NCBI GenBank assembly: GCA_030612025.1
Contig: JAUWOR010000004.1
Coordinates: forward strand, 76,358 to 140,357
Direction of reading: 5' to 3'
From: Dehalococcoidia bacterium
Lineage (GTDB): Bacteria; Chloroflexota; Dehalococcoidia; GIF9; AB-539-J10
DNA: 64,000 nucleotides
The position numbers were made by a program, and so were the translations under genes. The notes under the pieces are model-generated. The model was not told where the DNA came from, did no database searches, and was given only the letters and a program-made list of their open reading frames with translations. Of this stretch, positions 1 to 9,487 are shown piece by piece (positions within the stretch are counted from its first letter, which is position 1; the number at the start of each line of letters is the position of its first letter).

Positions 1-6
1 GGACGC

Positions 7-138
7 TCAGTCAAATTTGGCATGTATGCTATCGACCTTGTCTTGCAGTTCGATTGTCAGGCGAATTGCCTTAGCGTTTGGAATATTAAGATCAGAATGC
101 CTCTTTAATCGGTTATCTATAATATCATGTGTGGGCAT
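7..138 (-). pseudogene. Chimeric remnant: N-terminus of a PLD-SNF2-helicase-like protein fused to the C-terminal tail of a type ISP-like restriction-modification enzyme
   Basis: Hand translation MPTHDIIDNRLKRHSDLNIPNAKAIRLTIELQDKVDSIHAKFD*. MPTHDIIDNR resembles the start of RM-associated PLD/helicase proteins (recalled); the tail AIRLTIELQ recurs at 1390-1460. Confidence 0.5.
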
Positions 139-141
139 TGG

Positions 142-585
142 TCACTCCTGTAGCAGGTTTGGGTAGCTAGTGCGGAGCCATTTTACCACAGAAGCCCGGA
201 GATTCCCTGCCAGAATTACCATCTCTTTAACCTCCTGGTCAGATACCACCCCTGCCCGCTCATAGTCGCTGATGTTCCGTTTCTTTCGGAAACCATCAAA
301 TTGGGTAATCAGCCTGGCATCAGCCCTGATGGTATAGGCAAGCGACTGGATCACCCGATAGTGGTGGGCATCCCGTGCAGCACGGTAGCCAGCTGCGGCC
401 AGGGCTGCAGTCGCCATCTGGAGAGCAGCGTTATAGGCGATATTTAACTTCCAGTCCGGGCTCAACCCGGCTGTCTGGCAGTTATGTAGGTCGCGATCCG
501 CTACGCTCAGTAGGTCTGCAATCTCCTGAGGGCTAGTCTGGTGTTCGATCAGCCAGCCGTTTTTCAACCAGTCGTGCAAGCTCAT
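142..585 (-). CDS. HEPN-domain protein (partner of MNT, type VII-like toxin-antitoxin)
   Basis: About 147 aa helical protein with AYNAALQ and RKKRNISDY (RX4Y) motifs; overlaps the upstream MNT gene. Confidence 0.75.
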   Translation of the reverse strand: MSLHDWLKNGWLIEHQTSPQEIADLLSVADRDLHNCQTAGLSPDWKLNIAYNAALQMATAALAAAGYRAARDAHHYRVIQSLAYTIRADARLITQFDGFRKKRNISDYERAGVVSDQEVKEMVILAGNLRASVVKWLRTSYPNLLQE

Positions 586-1171
586 GTTCATCTCCAATTA
601 GATATATTTTACTCCCGCTCAAGACTGACTTGAGGAAATGATGTCCCTCGGTGATTTTACTTTTAAACTCGTCCGGGGGATACACTGTGGGATTGATTTC
701 CCGCCCCAGCGTCTCCTGGGCAAGGCTAAGTCTCTCAACGACTTCAGCGAATGTCACTTCGCCCACTACTAAGATGTCCACGTCACTGGATTGGTATTCT
801 GAGCCACGGGCTACGGAACCGTAGATTAGGGCAATCGAGATGTTGTCTACCAGTGGAGCCAGAGCAGACCGTAATATATCTCCAACCCCGGCCGTCTTGA
901 CCACGAAGCTTCTCAGCTCAGCAAAGATAGGACATTTGGGATTAGCCTGATAATAAACTTGCTTGCCTCTCACAGTCCGCCGGATAATTCCTGCAGCGGA
1001 AAGCTGTTTCAATTCCCTTTGTATAGCACCCAGGCCTGTGCCGGAGAAGCGGGCGATCTGACGCAGGTAAAAAGACTCATCGGCATGACTGTAAAGCAGG
1101 GACAGAATCGCCCGACGGGTCTTGCCAAACAGGGCTGCAGACAGATTATAGCTTTCAGTCATTGTACCCAT
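533..1171 (-). CDS. wHTH-fused minimal nucleotidyltransferase (MNT antitoxin)
   Basis: N-terminal wHTH (LRQIARFSGTGLGAIQRELKQL) plus YGSVARG...SDVDILV nucleotidyltransferase motif; start chosen at MGTMTES. Confidence 0.85.
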   Translation of the reverse strand: MGTMTESYNLSAALFGKTRRAILSLLYSHADESFYLRQIARFSGTGLGAIQRELKQLSAAGIIRRTVRGKQVYYQANPKCPIFAELRSFVVKTAGVGDILRSALAPLVDNISIALIYGSVARGSEYQSSDVDILVVGEVTFAEVVERLSLAQETLGREINPTVYPPDEFKSKITEGHHFLKSVLSGSKIYLIGDEHELARLVEKRLADRTPD

Positions 1172-1229
1172 TATGGGGACAATTGTACCCTTTTTAGTTA
1201 CGGTATTCAAGGCTCTCTTTTGGCTGCCT

Positions 1230-1335
1230 CACTCTCTTTGCCTTTGGCTCCAGGCGTTTGTATCCCTCACTAATTTGCTCCAGCGCTTCGCGGTTTGCGG
1301 TGTTGCCTATAAGGAGCTTGAGCTTTAATGCTCCC
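1230..1335 (-). pseudogene. Fragment of PLD-SNF2 helicase-like protein
   Basis: LKLLIGNTANREALEQISEGYKRLE resembles the N-terminal region of the same family whose start lies at 7-138; boundaries approximate. Confidence 0.45.
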
Positions 1336-1389
1336 TCGAGTTCTTTATGAGTAGGCTTTATAGTGGGTATGAAAGAGAGCAAAAACTAG

Positions 1390-1728
1390 CTAATCAAGCT
1401 TCGCATATTCACTATCAATCTTACCTTGCAACTCGATCGTGAGGCGGATTGCCTCGGCTGCCCTCATATAATGATTAATCTCATCCAGAGATAACTTCCG
1501 TCCCTTTCCATCCTTCAAAATGCCCTATAATGCCTCTGGCTTTTCAAGTGAAATAAGAACGCCTGCTTTACCCTGGAGCGGGAAAAGCTCAGAACACTCT
1601 TTAGCAAGCTCCTTTAAGGAGGGATAAAAGCTCTCCTCTCTAAAATTACCCGCCACATAAATCTTATGGATTTCCTTAAAGTAGCTAGTGAGAGTTCTCT
1701 CCAGTTTGCCTTTTTCTGCCTTTTTCAT
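1390..1728 (-). pseudogene. Internally deleted type ISP / N6-methylase restriction-modification gene (only N- and C-termini remain)
   Basis: 1525-1728 encodes YFKEIHKIY..NFREESFYPSLKEL (N-terminus-like); 1390-1518 encodes LKDGKGRKLSLDEINHYMRAAEAIRLTIELQGKIDSEYAKLD* (C-terminus-like); no methylase core in between. Confidence 0.6.
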
Positions 1729-1854
1729 TTGTTCCTTTTGCTTAAGGAAGCGATCATCTTGCCTAACATTCCACGATCAAAGGAAGTTGCCGAGGTAATT
1801 AAGGTGAAGGGTAGCAAGCTGCAAGTATGCTCTAACACAAAATTAGGCCTAAGA

Positions 1855-2661
1855 CTATGAAGATTCATCAGGGATTAGATTCTTCTTTGCATTTATTTGC
1901 TTTTCCCATTGTGCAAACCGAAGTTTTACTGCTTGGATATTATCTTTATCAAGCGGATTCATATGACAAACAACACATCGGGATTTATAAACTTCGTCGA
2001 CGAACTGCGTGAACCACTCCAAGGACGAAATGATATCTGGCACAACTTCTCTTTCTATCTTTCTCATAAGAGCCGATAATTGATTTAAATCGAGATAATC
2101 AATAGGACGAGCACCTCTTCTTTGATGCCAGGAGTTTCTTTTTTCATCAGCCATTCGCTTACTTACAGCATCCCTGAGCGGTTTAGGCGCTTCAGAATCC
2201 CACCAGTTGTTACCATATCGGGAAGTCATAACACGGTCAATAACCTGCCGAATTGAATTTTCTAGAATATATAGGAGAGGATATATCTCTGCCATCTCCT
2301 TTGCTTCTGAAATCTTTTTTTGCGGAAGGATAGGGTCGGCAACCTTGAATTCCTGACCACCTATTATAATAACCCCTTGCTTTCTTCTTAATTCCTCTTT
2401 TCTTTGTCGGGTTGCTTTGCTTACAGAAGGCAAAGTTTGAACTGGAGGAGAAATCTGTTGCAGAAGGACTCTGACATGATTGATGATCTCTTTATCAAGA
2501 TATTTGTCGATGATGATGCCTTCTTGCTGAGCAATTACATAAGTAGCATCTTCCGTAGTCATTGCATATCGTCTTTTTAATTTTTTGACTCGCTGAGAAA
2601 CAGCTTGGGGAGTGACCCCCAATTTTTCGAGCAGCGCCTTACGAAGTTGCCTGTTCGTCAT
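1855..2661 (-). CDS. N-terminal HTH plus Swt1-like HEPN domain protein (putative RNase effector)
   Basis: LGVTPQAVSQRVKKL HTH; YPLLYILENSIRQVI...YGNNWW...DYLDLNQL and an RX4H motif (RCVVCH, 1963-1980); start at MTNRQ overlaps the upstream gene. Confidence 0.75.
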   Translation of the reverse strand: MTNRQLRKALLEKLGVTPQAVSQRVKKLKRRYAMTTEDATYVIAQQEGIIIDKYLDKEIINHVRVLLQQISPPVQTLPSVSKATRQRKEELRRKQGVIIIGGQEFKVADPILPQKKISEAKEMAEIYPLLYILENSIRQVIDRVMTSRYGNNWWDSEAPKPLRDAVSKRMADEKRNSWHQRRGARPIDYLDLNQLSALMRKIEREVVPDIISSLEWFTQFVDEVYKSRCVVCHMNPLDKDNIQAVKLRFAQWEKQINAKKNLIPDESS

Positions 2662-2917
2662 TGGATTTGCCTTCTTCAAAAAGTCCTTCTGCCTTGCCTT
2701 TTCCACCCCTAGCTTTCTTTCTAATGTCAGACAAGGTGACGCTGACTGTGTTTGCAGTGGTTCCTAGTAGCTTGGCGATTTCTTTTGGTTGAAAACCAAC
2801 GCTGGAAAGGACTGCAATTCTATCCCTCTGGATTTGATCCCTCGTAGCAGTTAATGCTAGGAGCTTAGTAATGCGCTGGAGTTCTTGCAGGATTTCCTCT
2901 TCTTTGGAATCATTCAT
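2639..2917 (-). CDS. Small HTH protein (sigma-70 region 4 / LuxR-like)
   Basis: GFQPKEIAKLLGTTANTVSVTLSDIRKK; paralogous to 2914-3165; ATGA overlap. Confidence 0.75.
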   Translation of the reverse strand: MNDSKEEEILQELQRITKLLALTATRDQIQRDRIAVLSSVGFQPKEIAKLLGTTANTVSVTLSDIRKKARGGKGKAEGLFEEGKSNDEQATS

Positions 2918-3165
2918 TCCGCTCCCGCCTCCTCTGTAGCTTTTTCACCCTGCGATTTGCTTTTCTTTCTAGCTTCCGACAGCCGAACACTAACTGTGCC
3001 TGGAGTTGTCCCAACTATTTCAGCAATTAGGTTTGTATCTAGGCCTAAAGCACCAAGGGTTAAAATAGCCTCGGTTTTTCCCTTTCCCTCAATAGCCTTA
3101 TTTCCAAGCAGCCGAATTATAATATCAAGTTTTGTGTCGATTCTTTCAAGAATTTCTTCCGTCAT
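2914..3165 (-). CDS. Small HTH protein (paralogue of 2639-2917)
   Basis: GLDTNLIAEIVGTTPGTVSVRLSEARKK; AAGGAG ribosome-binding site upstream. Confidence 0.75.
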   Translation of the reverse strand: MTEEILERIDTKLDIIIRLLGNKAIEGKGKTEAILTLGALGLDTNLIAEIVGTTPGTVSVRLSEARKKSKSQGEKATEEAGAE

Positions 3166-3181
3166 TGGTCCACTCCTTTTA

Positions 3182-3221
3182 TCATCGGCAAAATCATCAT
3201 CTCATCGGCAAAGTCATCATC
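3182..3221. repeat. 20-bp tandem direct repeat (2 copies, 1 mismatch) inside the HTH operon
   Basis: tcatcggcaaaatcatcatc / tcatcggcaaagtcatcatc. Confidence 0.85.
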
Positions 3222-3239
3222 TTTTTCCTTCAGATTACC

Positions 3240-3659
3240 TTATTTTTGACTAACTTGATCGGTCTTTCGTCTTTTGGAGCGTTCCTTCTTGCCAGCAGCA
3301 ACTTCAATCCCAAACTCACCAAGCGACACAATTTTGCACCGGCGGCCTCGCACCTCTTTAGATTCTTCCACTATCCCTTCCCTTTGCCACTTGTCCCACC
3401 AGTTAGATACGGTATCTTTACTCACTCCAGTAATGGATTCAATCTGTCTTGTACCATTGTTACCCTCTGTGGCTTCAAAGACGCGCTTTTTGTCCTCAGA
3501 ATCCAGAATCGTTATTAGCCGATTTCTTATATTCTCATAATTAGCTAGCTTGGTGTAGATAATGAACTTATGTAACAAGGGTATGAAATCATCACCCTCC
3601 AGTTTCTGTCCGGATTGCTCTTGGCTAGCGGCGAGTCTTTCCCGCTTGCTTTCATTCAT
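3240..3659 (-). CDS. Winged-HTH protein
   Basis: TRQIESITGVSKDTVSNWWDKWQREGIVEES; AAAGGAGG RBS before MNESK. Confidence 0.75.
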   Translation of the reverse strand: MNESKRERLAASQEQSGQKLEGDDFIPLLHKFIIYTKLANYENIRNRLITILDSEDKKRVFEATEGNNGTRQIESITGVSKDTVSNWWDKWQREGIVEESKEVRGRRCKIVSLGEFGIEVAAGKKERSKRRKTDQVSQK

Positions 3660-3702
3660 AGTAATGCCTCCTTTACCCATAGCAGATGCCTTTTTGAAGT
3701 TT

Positions 3703-4020
3703 TTATACTTCCCATCTTTTTCGGTAAACCCTTTTCCCTTCTTTATCTTGCACTGATACGAGTCCTGCGCCCACTAGTGCCTTCAGGTGAAGAGAGACAT
3801 TCGGTTGGCTGGTTTTTAGCAACTTTGTGATTTCCCCAACACTTCTTCTTCCGTCCAACAGTTCGTAGATTTGTCTTTTAGTCGAATCCTTATTACCTAA
3901 TGATTGCTCGGCTCTTTCGCGTGCTAGCCGAAGCTGATCTTGATATACAAGCTCAAATTCGTCTAACAGACGTTGGAGAAGATCCCTTATTTCTGATAAA
4001 GTTTGTTCTTGACTATCCAT
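3703..4020 (-). CDS. ArsR-like winged-HTH protein
   Basis: RQIYELLDGRRSVGEITKLLKTSQPNVSLHLKALVGAGLV. Confidence 0.8.
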   Translation of the reverse strand: MDSQEQTLSEIRDLLQRLLDEFELVYQDQLRLARERAEQSLGNKDSTKRQIYELLDGRRSVGEITKLLKTSQPNVSLHLKALVGAGLVSVQDKEGKRVYRKRWEV

Positions 4021-4048
4021 AAGCAATTTTACTAATACTTACAATATT

Positions 4049-4077
4049 ATTATATACAATGCTAACTAAGATGTCAA
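4049..4077 (-). promoter_or_regulatory. Consensus sigma70/sigmaA promoter for the HTH-HEPN operon
   Basis: Minus strand TTGACA-N17-TATAAT, exact consensus. Confidence 0.8.
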
Positions 4078-4368
4078 ATCACGACGTTAAATTCAATCTT
4101 TTTGTAGACTTATGAGAACTTAGTAAATAAATTCTGACTAATATTTCTTCAGCCAATAACTTCTGTCTATTCAAGATAATTAGAGTTCGAGTGTAGTGCC
4201 GGCTTCCCCATCCAGGATTCAAACTTGCCCGTATATCAAACTATTCTCCGATGGAAAACGGTCTTATCTAGGAACTTGCTCTCTAGCCTTTAGTGGCAGA
4301 ACCAAATGCTATGTTTTATCTAGCTTAGTACAGTTTGTATGTTATGTCAACTTTATTATATAACAACC

Positions 4369-4472
4369 TCAGACATTCCCTAAGTCTTTCTTCAGTTCCT
4401 CAGTAGGATAATCGAAAACAGGAATTTTATGTTTCCCCAGGATTTCTACGAAGGCTCTTTTGGAATAACCAG
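4369..4472 (-). pseudogene. 3' remnant of a UPF0175-like antitoxin gene, copy 1
   Basis: Translates GYSKRAFVEILGKHKIPVFDYPTEELKKDLGNV*; about 90% identical (8 mismatches in 82 bp) to 5641-5722. Confidence 0.55.
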
Positions 4473-4507
4473 CAGGAGTGGAAGCTTGCCACCCGTATCT
4501 CATACAT

Positions 4508-4762
4508 TTAAGCTTCCTTCTCCACCTCCTTCACAACCTCCTCAAATAATCGCCCTCCAGTTATTCGAAACTCATTCTCAGCCTCCATCATGGCTTTTAG
4601 ATCCTCTTTATCCTCCAAAGCCTCCCTTTTTTCAAGCCACTCTCGGAATGCCTCGATAGTGATTTCTCGAATCGATTTACCTCGCTCGATAGCAGCAATC
4701 TTTATCGCTTTAAGGAGTTCCTCACTTCCTAAATCTACAGTTATTCGCGTTCCTTTAGCCAT
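4508..4762 (-). CDS. Ribbon-helix-helix antitoxin-like protein (orphan)
   Basis: RITVDLGSEELLKAIKIAAIERGKSIREI with acidic C-terminus; GGAGGTG RBS; followed by a truncated MYEIRV start. Confidence 0.65.
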   Translation of the reverse strand: MAKGTRITVDLGSEELLKAIKIAAIERGKSIREITIEAFREWLEKREALEDKEDLKAMMEAENEFRITGGRLFEEVVKEVEKEA

Positions 4763-4977
4763 ACTCACCTCCTTCGCTTGCATTATAGCATAAAGACATA
4801 AAAATGAGTAACTGCTATGCAAAAGTTATTTCATCTAAAAGGGTTCCAATTCTTCGGCAACCATTTCTGGTGAGGTATCGATGACCCACGCATCATATAG
4901 CCTCTCAAGTGGGCCAGTATCGTCGGTGTAGATTCCGCTGGGATATGGTCGAGATATGAGCTTGATATTTAGGCTCA

Positions 4978-5223
4978 TTATGTCCTGTCATAAGCTTTCA
5001 AAAATTCGTCTCTGGATATTCCAGCTTGTGCACATATTGTTCTTAGTGTTGAACTTTTGATCCTCGGATGGTTAGGCATCGTCAAAGGCGTTCTACTTCC
5101 ATCGGGATTTTCACGTACCATGGCAATGTGCTCCTTTTCTCTAACAAACTCGAAACCAAGAAGTCCAAAAGCCTTTATTACTCGCCTCTTAGGAACATCA
5201 ACCGGGAACTTTCTCTCAAACAT
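4978..5223 (-). CDS. hicA: HicA-family toxin
   Basis: 81 aa; GFEFVREKEHIAM...LTMPNH...TLRTICAQAGIS. Confidence 0.8.
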   Translation of the reverse strand: MFERKFPVDVPKRRVIKAFGLLGFEFVREKEHIAMVRENPDGSRTPLTMPNHPRIKSSTLRTICAQAGISRDEFLKAYDRT

Positions 5224-5443
5224 TTACCCCCGTTTCAGTAATGAAAGCCTCAAGAACGGGGGGCTCTGATTCAATTACTTCTTTACCAAAGGTCTCGATA
5301 TGAAACCGGATAGCTGATTTCACATCTGACACAGCTTCTTCATAAGTATCCCCTTGCCCTACCACGATGCCTTTCAAGCCCAGGGGATATGCGACATACC
5401 CATCGGGGGTTTTTTCCACTACAATTTTAAACTGATGTACCAT
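5216..5443 (-). CDS. hicB: HicB-family antitoxin (short)
   Basis: GYVAYPLGLKGIVVGQGDTYEEA; overlaps hicA. Confidence 0.8.
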   Translation of the reverse strand: MVHQFKIVVEKTPDGYVAYPLGLKGIVVGQGDTYEEAVSDVKSAIRFHIETFGKEVIESEPPVLEAFITETGVNV

Positions 5444-5600
5444 AATTTACCTCCTGGATTTACGTCCTTGGCATTTTTAAGGAAGCAAGCTCAATCATGC
5501 TCTTGCATTGCCAATTATAGCACTACTAGTGCAAATTTTGTGGTGGAGGGTAAAGCTATATTTTTATCTTGGATGAGCAGCTTTTATTGGTATGTCAAAT

Positions 5601-5722
5601 TCATTGCGTATAATAACCTGCGGCATTCTCTAACTCTTTTTTCAGTTCCTCGGCAGGATAGTTGAAAACAGGAATTTTATGTTTTCCCAGGATTTCTGCG
5701 AAGGCTCTTTTAGGATAACCAG
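5601..5722 (-). pseudogene. 3' remnant of a UPF0175-like gene, copy 2
   Basis: GYPKRAFAEILGKHKIPVFNYPAEELKKELENA; direct repeat of 4391-4472. Confidence 0.55.
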
Positions 5723-5915
5723 TGTGGCACCCAGATTTTAATTTAATAGCCCCTCTATTTCCCGTTTGATGCTTTGGTTAAGTTTTTCAGGCAAGGGGGG
5801 ATTTTGTCTCAGCTAAAAGATTATAGAAGGTAGTCCTTAGGATGGCCACTTTTTGAATAAGGGGGGATATAGCAAAAGTTCATTGAAGTCGATCTTAAGA
5901 AGTAAGATGGCTCTT

Positions 5916-6260
5916 TTAGCAAGTCAGGTGCAAAGCCGCTATAACCTGCTCTTCCGCTTGAGATTTTTCGTTGTAGATTTTAGATGCTTTATCAGTTGGC
6001 TCCGCTATTAGTTCTATATTATTGGACTTCAAGAATTCCTTTACCTCCTGTTTAACTTCAACATAACCAAAAGCTCCGGTTCCAACTATTAAAACCTTCG
6101 GCGCAGCTTCAATGATTCCCTTCATATCTTCCATATTCAGCTCGTGTCCTTCTTTACGCCACCAACCACTATTAACCTTGTTGGGAAAGACAATAACATC
6201 GCTCGTATATTTCTTACCGTTTATCACTACCTCTCCAAAGGAATAAAAATCAATACGCAT
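5916..6260 (-). CDS. Mth938-like (DUF498) protein
   Basis: YSFGEVVINGKKYTSDVIV...WWRKEGH...GTG...AALHLTC. Confidence 0.85.
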   Translation of the reverse strand: MRIDFYSFGEVVINGKKYTSDVIVFPNKVNSGWWRKEGHELNMEDMKGIIEAAPKVLIVGTGAFGYVEVKQEVKEFLKSNNIELIAEPTDKASKIYNEKSQAEEQVIAALHLTC

Positions 6261-6363
6261 ACTTTCCTCCCTGGTTTGGCTTTTAAGCTTATCATACCAG
6301 CCTGATTACCTATTTTTGAAGCACAAACCAATTGTGTAATGCTCTATAATATGTTGTAAGTGT

Positions 6364-7062
6364 ATGTCATCAGATTTAGCCAAGCGGATTGAAGCCCTAG
6401 CTCAATGGATGTTTGAAGCAAGGCATCTGGTTGTCTTCACCGGTGCCGGCATAAGCACGGAATCAGGTTTGCCTGATTTCCGCGGGCCCGATGGCATCTG
6501 GACACGCCAGGCAAAAGGACTCCCTCCAAAGGCAAGACCATTTGGCTCTGTAGAGCCTAATGCGGGGCACATGGCTATTGTGGAGCTACAGAAACTGGGC
6601 AAGCTGAGTTTTCTTATCTCGCAAAATGTGGACAATCTTCACTTGAGGTCCGGAATACGCCCTGATTTACTGGCAGAGTTACATGGCAATATCACCAAGT
6701 TGCGGTGCACTCGCTGTGAAGCTGAAGTGGATAAATCTGCCGGGCTGAGGAGATGCTCTTGTGGAGGCAGACTGGTTTCCAGTGTGGTTAACTTTGGTCA
6801 GCCCTTGCCTCGAAAGGCACTGGCAGATTCCTATTGGCATTCGGAAAACTGTGCCCTTTTCATAGTCGCTGGCTCAAGCCTCGTGGTCACTCCGGCCGCT
6901 GACATGCCTAGAGTGGCTCTGAAATCAGGAGCCAGGCTGGTGATTATCAATCAAGGTGAAACGCCATTCGACCGGGTTGCTCATCTGAGATTCTGGGAAG
7001 GGATAGGAGAAGTCTTACCTCCAGCAGTGGCTCAGTTAAAGGAACTCATGAGAGTATCTTGA
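6364..7062 (+). CDS. cobB: Sir2-family NAD-dependent protein deacylase
   Basis: TGAGISTESGLPDFRG, SQNVDNLH, ELHGN, Zn-binding Cys pairs. Confidence 0.9.
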   Translation: MSSDLAKRIEALAQWMFEARHLVVFTGAGISTESGLPDFRGPDGIWTRQAKGLPPKARPFGSVEPNAGHMAIVELQKLGKLSFLISQNVDNLHLRSGIRPDLLAELHGNITKLRCTRCEAEVDKSAGLRRCSCGGRLVSSVVNFGQPLPRKALADSYWHSENCALFIVAGSSLVVTPAADMPRVALKSGARLVIINQGETPFDRVAHLRFWEGIGEVLPPAVAQLKELMRVS

Positions 7063-8209
7063 TTGGGCTGTTTCCCAGATGGGAAGTTATCTTACTCAAA
7101 AGCTTATCCACTCCCCAGCCTTTGGTGGCGGAGATAAGGGCTATGTTTTTATCAGGCAGCACGATTTGTTCCTTAAGACAAGGAACAGCAGTCAGGATTT
7201 CTAGCTCCCCTTCACTGCTCAGGGCTAAGTCTAATTTGTTGAACACTGTGATTCTAGGCTTGTCTTTAAGGTTTAGCTCGTCAAGGATTTCCTCTACTGT
7301 GCAGCACTGATTAGCGGCGTTTTTATGCGTTATGTCAACCATATGCAGGAGTAAGTTGGCTTCACCAAGCTCCTCCAGCGTGGCTCGAAAGGCGGCAATG
7401 ATTGATGACGGCAGTTTTTGAATAAAGCCTACAGTGTCAGTCATCAAGAATTGCTGACTGTTGGGTAAGTTCAAACGGCGAGTTACTGGGTCGAGGGTAG
7501 AAAAAAGCTTGTCTTCTACAACTACACCAGCCTGGCTTAAGGCGTTAAATAAGGTGCTTTTGCCAGCATTAGTATAGCCAACAAGGGCTACAATTGGCAT
7601 TCCTATTTTCTTGCGTTGCTTTCTATAAAGAGCTCTGTGCTGTCTTACCTCTTCTATTTCATGTTGCAGACGATTGATGCGCTTATGAATAAGGCGGCGG
7701 TCAGTTTCTAATTGCGATTCGCCAGGACCTCTGGTGCCGATACCGCCACCAAGTCGCTCTAAATGGCTCCACTGACCCACAAGCCTTGGCAGAAGGTATT
7801 GGTGCTGAGCTAACTCAACTTGAAGCTGTCCTTCATGGGTTCGAGCTTGTTTGGCAAATATGTCCAAAATGAGGGCTGTGCGGTCAATAACCTTGACCTG
7901 TAATAATTCTTCCAGGTTTCTTTGCTGCCGCGGTGATAGCTCATCATCAAAAATCACTGTGTTGTATTGAGTTTGCTCTTTGAGGCTAATTAGCTCGGCA
8001 ATCTTTCCCTTGCCGATATAATAAGTAGGTGAAGGCGCTTTTAGTTTCTGGGTAAACATACCTACCACATTGGCGCCGGCTGTCCTGGCTAGATAAGATA
8101 ATTCCTGTAGAGAATCAACAGCTGACCAACCATGGTTAGAGGCCTTGCTCTCTACTCCTACCAGGAATGCTTGCTCCTCAGTTTGGGTAGCGAAAAGCTC
8201 CTGCTTTAT
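7046..8209 (-). CDS. hflX: GTPase HflX (probable ATA start)
   Basis: GTRGPGE, GYTNAGKS, DTVGF, NKLD; GGAGG RBS 6 nt before in-frame ATA at 8209; the longer TTG ORF runs into a repeat. Confidence 0.93.
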   Translation of the reverse strand: MKQELFATQTEEQAFLVGVESKASNHGWSAVDSLQELSYLARTAGANVVGMFTQKLKAPSPTYYIGKGKIAELISLKEQTQYNTVIFDDELSPRQQRNLEELLQVKVIDRTALILDIFAKQARTHEGQLQVELAQHQYLLPRLVGQWSHLERLGGGIGTRGPGESQLETDRRLIHKRINRLQHEIEEVRQHRALYRKQRKKIGMPIVALVGYTNAGKSTLFNALSQAGVVVEDKLFSTLDPVTRRLNLPNSQQFLMTDTVGFIQKLPSSIIAAFRATLEELGEANLLLHMVDITHKNAANQCCTVEEILDELNLKDKPRITVFNKLDLALSSEGELEILTAVPCLKEQIVLPDKNIALISATKGWGVDKLLSKITSHLGNSPIKILS

Positions 8210-8231
8210 TTGTTCCCTCCTGTTTACCCTG

Positions 8232-8331
8232 AGGCTGTTTAATTTTGATTTCTCGTTCAAATTTTTGTAGTTGCCTGATTTATCAGGCAGAAGCGCCCAA
8301 TAAATTGGGCAACTACATTTCTAAACAGCCT
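8232..8331. mobile_element. MITE/REPIN-like element family A (GGCTGTTT termini, internal GTAG palindromes)
   Basis: aggctgttt...tgtagttgcctgatttatcaggca...gcccaataaattgggcaactaca...aaacagcct; related copies at 15575, 18349 and 38560. Confidence 0.8.
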
Positions 8332-9487
8332 TCCAATTTAATAGGCGGTTTACTCCTTCCTCTAAACGGTCATCAGCCAGAGTTAGAGAGAATCTAATGT
8401 AACCCTCTCCCTCCTTTCCATAGCCAATGCCAGGAGTGACAGCTATGCCAGCTTCATCAAGCAACTTTTTAGTGAAATCTATCGAAGTATAGCCCTGAGG
8501 AACCTTAGCCCAAATATAGAAAGTGGCTTTGGGTATCCTGGCTTTTAAGCCTATTTTAGCCAGGACTTTTATCAGTTTATCTCGGCGCCGCTGCAAAATG
8601 GCATTATGCTCAGCGATATGGTTCTGAGAGCCACGCAGGGCTTCGATAGCAGCCTGCTGAATTGCTTGAGGGATGCCCGAATCCAGATTGGATTTAACTC
8701 GCAATAAGGCATCTATCATCTCAGCATTGCCTACCACCATGCCTATTCGCCACCCTGTCATGTGATAAGTTTTGGACAAGGAGTGAAATTCTACGCCAAC
8801 TTCCTTAGCTCCTGATGCTTGCATAAAGCTTGGTGGCTTGTAGCCATCAAAGAAAACTTCGGTGTAAGGAGCATCGTGGCAGACAGCTAGATTATTGTGC
8901 TGGCGAGCAAAATGAACTGCCTTTTCGAAGAAATCAATGTCTGCTGTAGCCCCAGTGGGATTGTTGGGATAGTTTAACCACATGAGCTTTGCTTTGCCGG
9001 CTATCGGCTCAGGGATGGCTTCGAAGTCAGGCAAGAAGTCATTCACCTCTTTCAAGGGCATAAAATAAGGCTCGCCACCAGCCAGTATAGTGCCCATAGA
9101 AAACGGTGGATACCCTGGGTCGGGTACTAAAGCTATATCACCAACCTCAATAAAGCACAACGCCATATGCCCAATTCCTTCCTTGGAGCCAATGAGCGGC
9201 AGCACTTCTTTATCTGGATTTAGAATAACCCCGAATCGCCTCCCGTACCATTCGGCAATAGCCTGTCGGAGTGCAGGCAAGCCGCTAGTCTCGGGATACC
9301 GATGATTAGCCTGGTTGTGTGCTGCCTGGCACATGCATTCAATAATGTGAGCCGGCGTGGGCAAATCAGGGTCACCGAGGGCGAAGCTGATGATGTCCTC
9401 TCCCCTAGCTCGAAGTTCAGCGATTTTCTGATTTATGTCGACAAAAAGATAAGGGGGTAACTTATTAAGTCGTTTGGCTAATTCCAT
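8321..9487 (-). CDS. dapL: LL-diaminopimelate aminotransferase
   Basis: NYPNNPTG, SLSKTYHMTGWRIG; adjacent to dapF. Confidence 0.88.
   Translation of the reverse strand: MELAKRLNKLPPYLFVDINQKIAELRARGEDIISFALGDPDLPTPAHIIECMCQAAHNQANHRYPETSGLPALRQAIAEWYGRRFGVILNPDKEVLPLIGSKEGIGHMALCFIEVGDIALVPDPGYPPFSMGTILAGGEPYFMPLKEVNDFLPDFEAIPEPIAGKAKLMWLNYPNNPTGATADIDFFEKAVHFARQHNNLAVCHDAPYTEVFFDGYKPPSFMQASGAKEVGVEFHSLSKTYHMTGWRIGMVVGNAEMIDALLRVKSNLDSGIPQAIQQAAIEALRGSQNHIAEHNAILQRRRDKLIKVLAKIGLKARIPKATFYIWAKVPQGYTSIDFTKKLLDEAGIAVTPGIGYGKEGEGYIRFSLTLADDRLEEGVNRLLNWKAV

Follow-up and report, generated by a model that had tools for sequence, protein, structure and literature searches.

Variable arrays of small helix-turn-helix genes coupled to a Swt1-like HEPN gene: a candidate toxin-antitoxin-like or abortive-infection module in a Dehalococcoidia genome

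What do several very small genes for proteins of the helix-turn-helix (HTH) type do in front of a gene for a predicted ribonuclease (RNase), and does such an arrangement amount to a system of its own? The question is raised by a 64,000-nucleotide (nt) stretch of DNA from a Dehalococcoidia bacterium (assembly GCA_030612025.1, contig JAUWOR010000004.1, positions 76,358 to 140,357; hereafter, the window, in which positions are counted unless another locus is named). Here, five genes, g1 to g5, lie on the minus strand between positions 4077 and 1855, and the last of them encodes a protein of the HEPN superfamily. Metal-independent endoribonuclease activity is a trait of this superfamily, and RNases of this kind act as the effectors in many immune and toxin-antitoxin (TA) systems, such as those of Cas13, Csm6, AbiF, and HepT. 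These systems differ instructively in how the RNase is silenced and triggered. Comparison of the operon with related loci reveals that what is conserved is not the five-gene order of the window but a HEPN gene together with the variable array of small HTH genes to which it is translationally coupled.

The cassette is compact, fitting a consensus promoter and all five genes into 2.2 kb (Table 1). Downstream of the promoter come two genes for winged-HTH proteins (g1 and g2), two for mini-HTH proteins (g3 and g4), and g5, whose product joins an N-terminal domain (N-domain) to a HEPN domain. The original prediction, made from the sequence alone, described five co-oriented, partly overlapping genes behind an exact-consensus promoter, and on the minus strand all of its coordinates hold. 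Among eight promoter-like sites between 1400 and 4600, the site at 4077 to 4049 is the sole perfect one; by our own estimate, which assumes uniform base composition, about 0.001 perfect matches would arise by chance in 3.2 kb. In one related locus (L005) the two hexamers are unchanged, and in another (L006) each carries one change. Gaps of 22 nt and 74 nt separate g1 from g2 and g2 from g3, respectively, while g3 and g4 overlap by 4 nt and g4 and g5 by 23 nt. The same 23-nt overlap is found at 13 of 56 related junctions. The spacer between g2 and g3 holds a tandem repeat of 20 nt, the two copies of which match at 95%. Its copy number varies by strain (one in the X12 and X6 contigs, two in X7 and in the window), and a hunt for tandem repeats in the DNA upstream of other loci's arrays returned nothing conserved and no counterpart of this one; the repeat is probably not essential.

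Evidence for the conserved unit comes from 82 loci fetched via the HEPN protein (2 from species genomes and 80 from metagenomes), which together with the window make 83. Small genes in these loci were mapped by tblastn and jackhmmer and fall into two families, termed S for the mini-HTH genes and W for the winged-HTH genes. Linkage was counted over the 55 loci in which 700 nt or more of upstream sequence precedes the HEPN gene; about 7 of them nearly duplicate another locus. In 54 of these 55 loci, the exception being L035, the HEPN gene is immediately preceded by an array of small HTH genes with the same orientation. This frequency is far beyond chance and bears out the expectation that homologues of the operon's genes co-occur elsewhere. 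The expectation of five-gene synteny did not survive the comparison. Arrays comprise one to five small HTH genes, most often SS (20 loci), followed by SSS (9), SSWS (5), WSS (4), WS (4), S (3), WWS (2), and SW (2), while SSW, WW, SWS, SSWSS, and WWSS occur once each. The last of these is the window itself, whose order is thus unique among the 55 loci. Spacing within the cassettes is tight. At 50 of 56 junctions, the HEPN gene overlaps the last small gene or lies no more than 30 nt from it, and the same holds for neighboring genes at 75 of 80 junctions inside arrays. Three gaps are long, and two of them hold a third kind of small HTH ORF (open reading frame). In these two loci (L034, 2094-2300; L009, 2954-3175), a protein of 68 to 73 amino acids (aa), with a basic N terminus, a helix, and an HTH-like stretch but without a match in PADLOC, is encoded in the space that separates array and HEPN gene.

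The C-terminal domain of g5 is a HEPN domain of the Swt1/Abi2 clade with intact catalytic residues. The longest frame for g5 starts at 2706 and encodes 283 aa. Homologues, which range from 99% down to about 56% identity and are mostly 260 to 270 aa long, align from the ATG at 2661, giving a protein of 268 aa. The Pfam model HEPN_Swt1 (PF18731) scores 35.5 bits against a cutoff of 27.5 over residues 145 to 271 of the 283-aa frame. Moreover, the R228-x4-H233 (RX4H) motif is invariant in 23 of 23 aligned homologues, as is an upstream ENSxR motif. The protein also matches the PADLOC model PDC-M34B (PDLC04592; E = 1.3e-36, profile positions 45 to 191 of 192), with the first 125 residues of the 283-aa frame lying outside the model. 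An AlphaFold model of g5 has three parts, namely, the N-domain, a disordered linker (residues 72 to 101), and the HEPN domain, for which the predicted local distance difference test (pLDDT) score is mostly 84 to 93. VIA-align places the PbAbiF toxin, in a structure bound to its noncoding RNA (ncRNA), as the best match of the HEPN domain (Z = 8.9 over 148 residues, root mean square deviation of 4.5), with the C-terminal domain of yeast Swt1 at a Z of 6.4 and the HEPN domains of HepT, sacsin, Csm6, and LsoA at a Z of 5 to 6.3; helical bundles often reach Z values of this size. A PDB sequence search with g5 returned nothing, and Foldseek returned nothing below an E value of 0.001. Profile score, motif, and modeled fold together uphold the earlier description of g5 as a Swt1-like HEPN protein with an RX4H motif. 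The HEPN family is sizeable, with 182 clusters at 50% identity and E ≤ 1e-30, and most of the best 150 are full length.

The N-domain is less easily named. Its modeled helices span residues 4-14, 18-31, 36-46, and 57-70, and a match to HTH_24 (E = 0.004) weakly supports an HTH. VIA-align finds a likeness to the AROD domain of archaeal Rpa1, which is helical (Z = 7.7), and the ESM Atlas gave no usable match. A comparison of S profiles with the N terminus of g5 by hhalign was not significant (probability of 1 to 3%), and so we do not interpret the N-domain as a fused S unit.

The two mini-HTH genes next to g5 were predicted to be paralogous, and they are. The g3 and g4 proteins share 38% identity (E = 2e-10), and profile-profile comparison relates them with a probability of 99% (E = 2e-18). 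Both have sub-threshold matches to Sigma70_r4_2 (E of about 3e-4), and they belong to an S family of 143 ORFs across loci. The AlphaFold model of g3 is confident (pLDDT of 88.6) and comprises four helices, with a long N-terminal helix ahead of a trihelical HTH, plus a basic tail; its fold matches are generic only (LuxR, sigma region 4, and MarR type). We placed 125 S proteins in a quick maximum-likelihood tree, in which many forks are unresolved. A clade of 59 rows that includes g4 has a Shimodaira-Hasegawa-like approximate likelihood ratio test (SH-aLRT) support of 98, and 47 of its 59 members stand directly before a HEPN gene. A group of 36 rows includes g3, and 28 of these genes take second place counted from HEPN. 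Genes of the g3 and g4 types are old paralogues with a kept order. A search for longer proteins that carry an S domain found none, which is weak evidence concerning fusions. Across g1 to g4, no match to HTH_3 or another Xre-type model rose above noise, g3 having a weak Xre-like-HTH match at an E value of 0.05. The small proteins had also been proposed to hetero-oligomerize. An obligate complex of all four is unlikely because L005, with a HEPN protein 79% identical to g5, has only a g3-type gene, and L006 (78%) has only a g4-type gene. Prediction of a complex between g5 and g4 gave a score of 0.00, which counts neither for nor against binding.

Of the two winged-HTH proteins, g1 is the better defined. 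It scores 44 bits with Pfam HTH_5, the ArsR-type model, against a cutoff of 22, and 47.6 bits with NCBIfam HTH_metalloreg, which is under the cutoff of 55 for that model. Among the loci examined, orthologues of g1 (76 to 93% identity) are present only in L005, L006, and L016. For g2, HTH matches are all sub-threshold (HTH_28, E = 1.5e-4), and the protein also matches the winged-HTH parts of CasR/Csa3 models. Pairwise likeness between g1 and g2 is weak (E = 0.027); nevertheless, the two converge upon jackhmmer iteration into a W family of 31 ORFs across loci. The claim that every gene of the operon carries an HTH finds a match above the cutoff for g1, sub-threshold matches for g2, g3, and g4, together with HTH fold matches for the g3 model, and weak support for the N-domain of g5.

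Variant loci help to define what the array is coupled to. In the complete 4.1-Mb genome G311 (L092, 757-2167, minus strand), four S genes are followed by a gene for a 170-aa solo HEPN protein that has the RX4H motif and matches PDC-M34B (E = 2.4e-20) but has no N-domain. L044 (567-2841) is a tandem in which SS plus a 172-aa solo HEPN protein with RX4H is followed by SS plus an N-domain-HEPN protein. Since solo HEPN proteins without an N-domain stand behind S arrays in both loci, the array has as its partner the HEPN domain, or the expression of this domain, rather than the N-domain. Stop codons are reported inside two of the S matches of L092, which may reflect matches that run across neighboring genes. 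In L054 and L062, a further S gene lies downstream of the HEPN gene. The HEPN frame is split into two ORFs in L016 (5001-5813) and L081 (4986-5791), and these genes are probably decayed copies.

Two further loci depart from the pattern. L127 (genome G188, contig C115, 1-2441, minus strand) has an array of S-like and W-like genes ahead of an unrelated protein of at least 234 aa, cut by the contig end, in which neither a Pfam match nor a HEPN motif is seen and which may be a different effector. L087 (G274, 722-1953) encodes a 267-aa protein with a different N-terminal part and a Swt1-like HEPN domain (PDC-M34B, E = 5.5e-44). Its gene follows an overlapping gene for a 142-aa protein without a family match, so that another type of partner accompanies the same HEPN clade.

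Promoter regions of relatives provide a clue to regulation. In four of seven SS-type relatives examined, the -10 box is overlapped by a perfect 8-nt inverted repeat (TGTAATAT, 6 nt, ATATTACA), with a one-base shift and a 4-nt spacer in L017. The inverted repeat is not present in L003, L022, or the window. It is a candidate operator and hints at autoregulation.

The cassette is rare, patchy, accessory, and horizontally moving. A search of 60 genomes of close relatives returned 1 weak partial match to the HEPN protein (E = 2.6e-5). In the phylum, 4 of 401 genomes carry the HEPN protein; G000 and the unpublished G395 are among them, and beyond G000 the protein is full length only in G339. The S family at E ≤ 1e-5 is also found in 4 of 401 genomes, namely, G000, G339 (SSS plus HEPN), G311, and G188. 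A loose S profile matched 65 of 401 genomes (including the unpublished G281 and G325), and its matches outside the four genomes just named were dropped; they are partial, have E values above 1e-7, and lie within ORFs of 157 to 917 aa, and we read them as generic HTH domains. An S profile found no match in 51 genomes from the phylum to which the genome of L004 belongs, a negative that carries no weight. The GC (guanine-plus-cytosine) content of the loci ranges from 27 to 67%. Between recG and argS, a cassette is found in both L003 (2958-9186) and L029 (1908-7651), and L017 also has argS downstream; a possible explanation is that recG-argS is an insertion hot spot in that lineage.

Metagenomes place the operon in cold-seep and marine sediments, where 13 runs hold at least half of the sampled operon words. 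All or part of the operon is held by 20 runs from 10 studies, one of which is possibly the source of this DNA. Contigs from three other studies jointly span nearly the whole operon, with short gaps in X12 and X6, and none spans it alone. The metatranscriptome X20, from another study, has contigs that match 1605-1683 and 2762-3123, the latter in g3 and g4, with 90 to 95% likeness and high word depth. The mini-HTH genes of a relative may be transcribed, bearing in mind that DNA can occur in such libraries.

In the window, the operon lies among TA genes, as had been noted, with a HicA toxin gene, a UPF0175 antitoxin fragment, and a gene for an HTH-nucleotidyltransferase confirmed (Table 1). L003 has a HicB/HicA-like pair, read by eye only, just after its HEPN gene. 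Neighboring restriction-modification (R-M) genes had been described as shredded, and this description is weakly supported. A 42-aa fragment at 1390-1518 has a weak likeness to the end of type ISP R-M enzymes (E of about 1e-3), and another supposed R-M fragment had no match. Also, the interval 142-1210 is bracketed by a pair of short peptide fragments that resemble each other (7-138 and 1390-1518, minus strand), an arrangement that would fit an R-M gene disrupted by insertion of a nucleotidyltransferase module.

Table 1. Features of the operon, of its surroundings in the 64,000-nt window, and of the inverted repeat in related loci (window coordinates unless a locus is named)
Feature	Position	Strand	Remark
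Promoter, exact sigma-70 consensus	4049..4077	-	TTGACA, 17-nt spacer, TATAAT; 12/12 positions
g1	3703..4026	-	107-aa ArsR-type winged-HTH, N-terminal helical extension; W family
g2	3240..3680	-	146-aa winged-HTH-like; W family
20-nt tandem repeat, two copies	3182..3222		g2-g3 spacer
g3	2914..3165	-	83-aa mini-HTH; S family, distal type
g4	2639..2917	-	92-aa mini-HTH; S family, proximal type
g5	1855..2661	-	268 aa, N-domain plus Swt1-like HEPN; predicted RNase effector
g5 N-terminal four-helix domain, residues 1-70	2452..2661	-	possibly HTH
g5 HEPN domain, residues 114-258	1888..2322	-	
g5 RX4H catalytic motif, R228 to H233	1963..1980	-	codons read from DNA
UPF0175 antitoxin fragment	4369-4503		
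104-aa ORF	4508-4822		
HicA toxin gene	4978-5223		
75-aa ORF overlapping HicA gene	5216-5443		in place of HicB partner
HTH-nucleotidyltransferase gene	533-1210		
151-aa gene	142-597		
Inverted repeat over -10 box	L013 117-138; L020 1178-1199; L029 4426-4447; L017 552-571		

How, then, would the array and the HEPN protein work together? We favor, at slightly better than even confidence, a TA-like or abortive-infection module whose effector is the HEPN RNase and whose HTH array is autoregulatory and holds the RNase in check. Like other HEPN RNases, the protein would probably act as a dimer, with RX4H as the site that cuts RNA. The small HTH proteins, which would be made first and from the same strong promoter, could act as repressors of the operon and hold the RNase inactive, whether through binding to it or through a limit on its synthesis. 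If the supply of small proteins failed, or if a phage product interfered, the RNase would act and growth would stop. Several observations weigh against this proposal. S proteins consist of little beyond an HTH and a basic tail, with no conserved extra domain for toxin neutralization, and the small proteins are no more than candidate binders of the RNase. L005 and L006 each manage with one paralogue type, and so g3-type and g4-type genes are not strictly co-required. Inspection for inverted repeats revealed no evident operator at the window's own promoter. Flanks vary among loci and are mostly housekeeping genes (e.g., recG, argS, trpS, and DegV), because of which enrichment in defense islands is weak; 150 flanking ORFs gave few R-M or defense matches, such as two type IIG and two type II methylase members. 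Copies were found neither in phage records nor in viral contigs searched with the HEPN alignment, and a degenerate S-motif DNA pattern likewise found none in viral contigs. Plasmids yielded one weak, HEPN-only match, on a Sphaerospermopsis plasmid, where the 174-aa gene upstream of HEPN has no PADLOC or Pfam match. Finally, AbiF, a relative from the same clade, is restrained by an RNA antitoxin and not by a protein, according to the available text of its description (PMC13064643).

Other explanations have been considered against the same evidence. Tentatively, the small HTH proteins could be purely transcription factors that govern when and how strongly the HEPN protein is expressed, as controller (C) proteins do ahead of restriction-enzyme genes, with no protein antitoxin involved, and the HEPN protein could be self-inhibited and triggered directly by phage in the manner of PD-T4-5. 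The S and W proteins are indeed minimal HTH domains without an extra module, four of the seven SS-type relatives have the inverted repeat at the -10 box, array content is plastic even among close relatives, and PD-T4-5 is described in the available text as a single-gene abortive-infection defense (PMC9519451). However, up to five regulators would be excessive for simple control of one small gene, and the inverted repeat, besides being AT-rich and missing from the window promoter, was seen in loci that are closely related. Also, old paralogues in a fixed order that overlap the next gene look more like subunits with a fixed ratio. Such subunits are central to a bolder idea that we think unlikely, in which the ordered mini-HTH array would be a multi-subunit gate, a fixed-ratio hetero-oligomer, assembled either on DNA or on the RNase, by which an invader is sensed and the killer domain released. 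The same type of array might then serve interchangeable effectors, and the downstream variants seen so far are the N-domain-HEPN protein, the solo HEPN protein, and, in G188, one array before an unrelated protein.

We consider it improbable that the operon is a plain member of PDC-M34 or of the Abi2/AbiD/AbiF type III TA systems, with PDC-M34A or an antitoxin RNA as the partner and the HTH genes as incidental neighbors. This idea draws on the strong match of g5 to PDC-M34B, on the ncRNA-bound AbiF as best structural match, and on the tandem repeat within the operon. Nevertheless, PDC-M34A is absent from g1 to g4 and from the genome, g5 has no Pfam Abi_2 match at E ≤ 1, Rfam gave no match above noise, and the tandem repeat varies in copy number by strain and lacks a counterpart in other loci. 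Linkage of the HTH genes with the HEPN gene, seen in 54 of 55 loci, shows that these neighbors are not incidental, and we regard such membership as largely refuted. Very improbable indeed is a role outside biological conflict, in a housekeeping or stress circuit that, for example, ties RNA processing to a DNA site. Flanks that are mostly housekeeping genes would suit such a role, as would the HEPN proteins MtlR and eukaryotic Swt1, which the available text of a 2013 survey treats as regulators or sensors (PMC3710099). Yet RX4H is invariant here, unlike in inactive regulatory HEPN proteins, and the gene is missing from nearly all relatives, occupies differing genomic sites, and is sometimes broken.

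The TA-like or abortive-infection module that we favor would matter for understanding how HEPN RNases are controlled. A sizeable HEPN family travels with variable, ordered sets of tiny HTH proteins, a type of partner that is undescribed in the sources searched. If the small proteins gate the RNase, they would represent a new control principle for a common effector; if they only repress, the finding is a modest addition to the HEPN Abi-like genes. A multi-subunit gate with swappable effectors, if true, would define a new family of modular defense systems.

No named system with this architecture had been recognized in the original prediction, and our comparison with known systems agrees, in that PADLOC names the HEPN part only. 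The shared element is the B component of PDC-M34, which is PADLOC's untested candidate for phage defense. The operon differs in lacking the A component, with no match to PDC-M34A at E ≤ 1 among g1 to g4 and none to its model (PDLC04589) at the same threshold in the whole 95.6%-complete genome. It also differs in the N-terminal part of g5 that extends beyond the B model. A literature search for PDC-M34 found no paper, and its definition may sit in supplementary files; a search for Swt1-like HEPN, HEPN_Swt1, and PF18731 found none either.

Among characterized systems, AbiD and AbiF, of the Abi2 group, are the closest in their effector. The 2013 HEPN survey, in the part available, puts Abi2 and Swt1 on the same HEPN branch (PMC3710099), and g5 has PbAbiF as its best structural match. 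In the available text, AbiF and its group are described as type III TA toxins restrained by an upstream RNA (PMC13064643), and the likeness extends to a small accessory module with a neutralizer expected upstream of the toxin. The upstream partners differ, however, being a noncoding RNA for AbiF and one to five protein-coding mini-HTH genes here. For an upstream antitoxin RNA, Rfam gave no family above noise in positions 1 to 9000 of the window, where the upstream space is filled by protein-coding genes, although an RNA of a new kind is possible there. Further differences are the lack of a Pfam Abi_2 match and the extra N-terminal four-helix domain of g5. PD-T4-5, a distant relative of AbiF and AbiD in the same partial account of its single-gene defense (PMC9519451), matches only locally (g5 residues 136 to 175 against profile positions 43 to 82 of 309, E = 2.9e-7). 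The main text of the 2013 survey lists Swt1 and Abi2 fusions to ATPases, transmembrane helices, and winged HTHs in giant proteins, among others; arrays of small HTH genes are not among the contexts listed there, and its supplements may hold more (PMC3710099).

Type II TA systems that have HTH antitoxins, as well as the HEPN-MNT pair (HepT/MntA), resemble the cassette in organization. As in these systems, small genes of the DNA-binding type lie upstream of, and overlap, the gene for a HEPN RNase, one promoter serves the unit, and the spread is patchy and mobile, with the window operon itself among TA genes. Type II TA systems have one antitoxin, whereas several ordered paralogous small partners are found here, and the nucleotidyltransferase of HEPN-MNT has no equivalent. 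In contrast to both, the putative toxin has its own N-terminal HTH-like domain, and a neutralizing role for the small proteins is putative.

Controller (C) proteins of R-M systems offer a different parallel, with a small HTH gene just before, and overlapping, the gene for a dangerous nuclease. C proteins are of the Xre type, are present in single copy, and act at defined C-boxes. The small proteins here have no Xre-type match and occur in several copies, and there is no methylase to wait for, as the operon holds neither a methylase nor a restriction gene. Against this background, the small-HTH array with its HEPN gene is an apparently undescribed partner architecture for a known class of effector.

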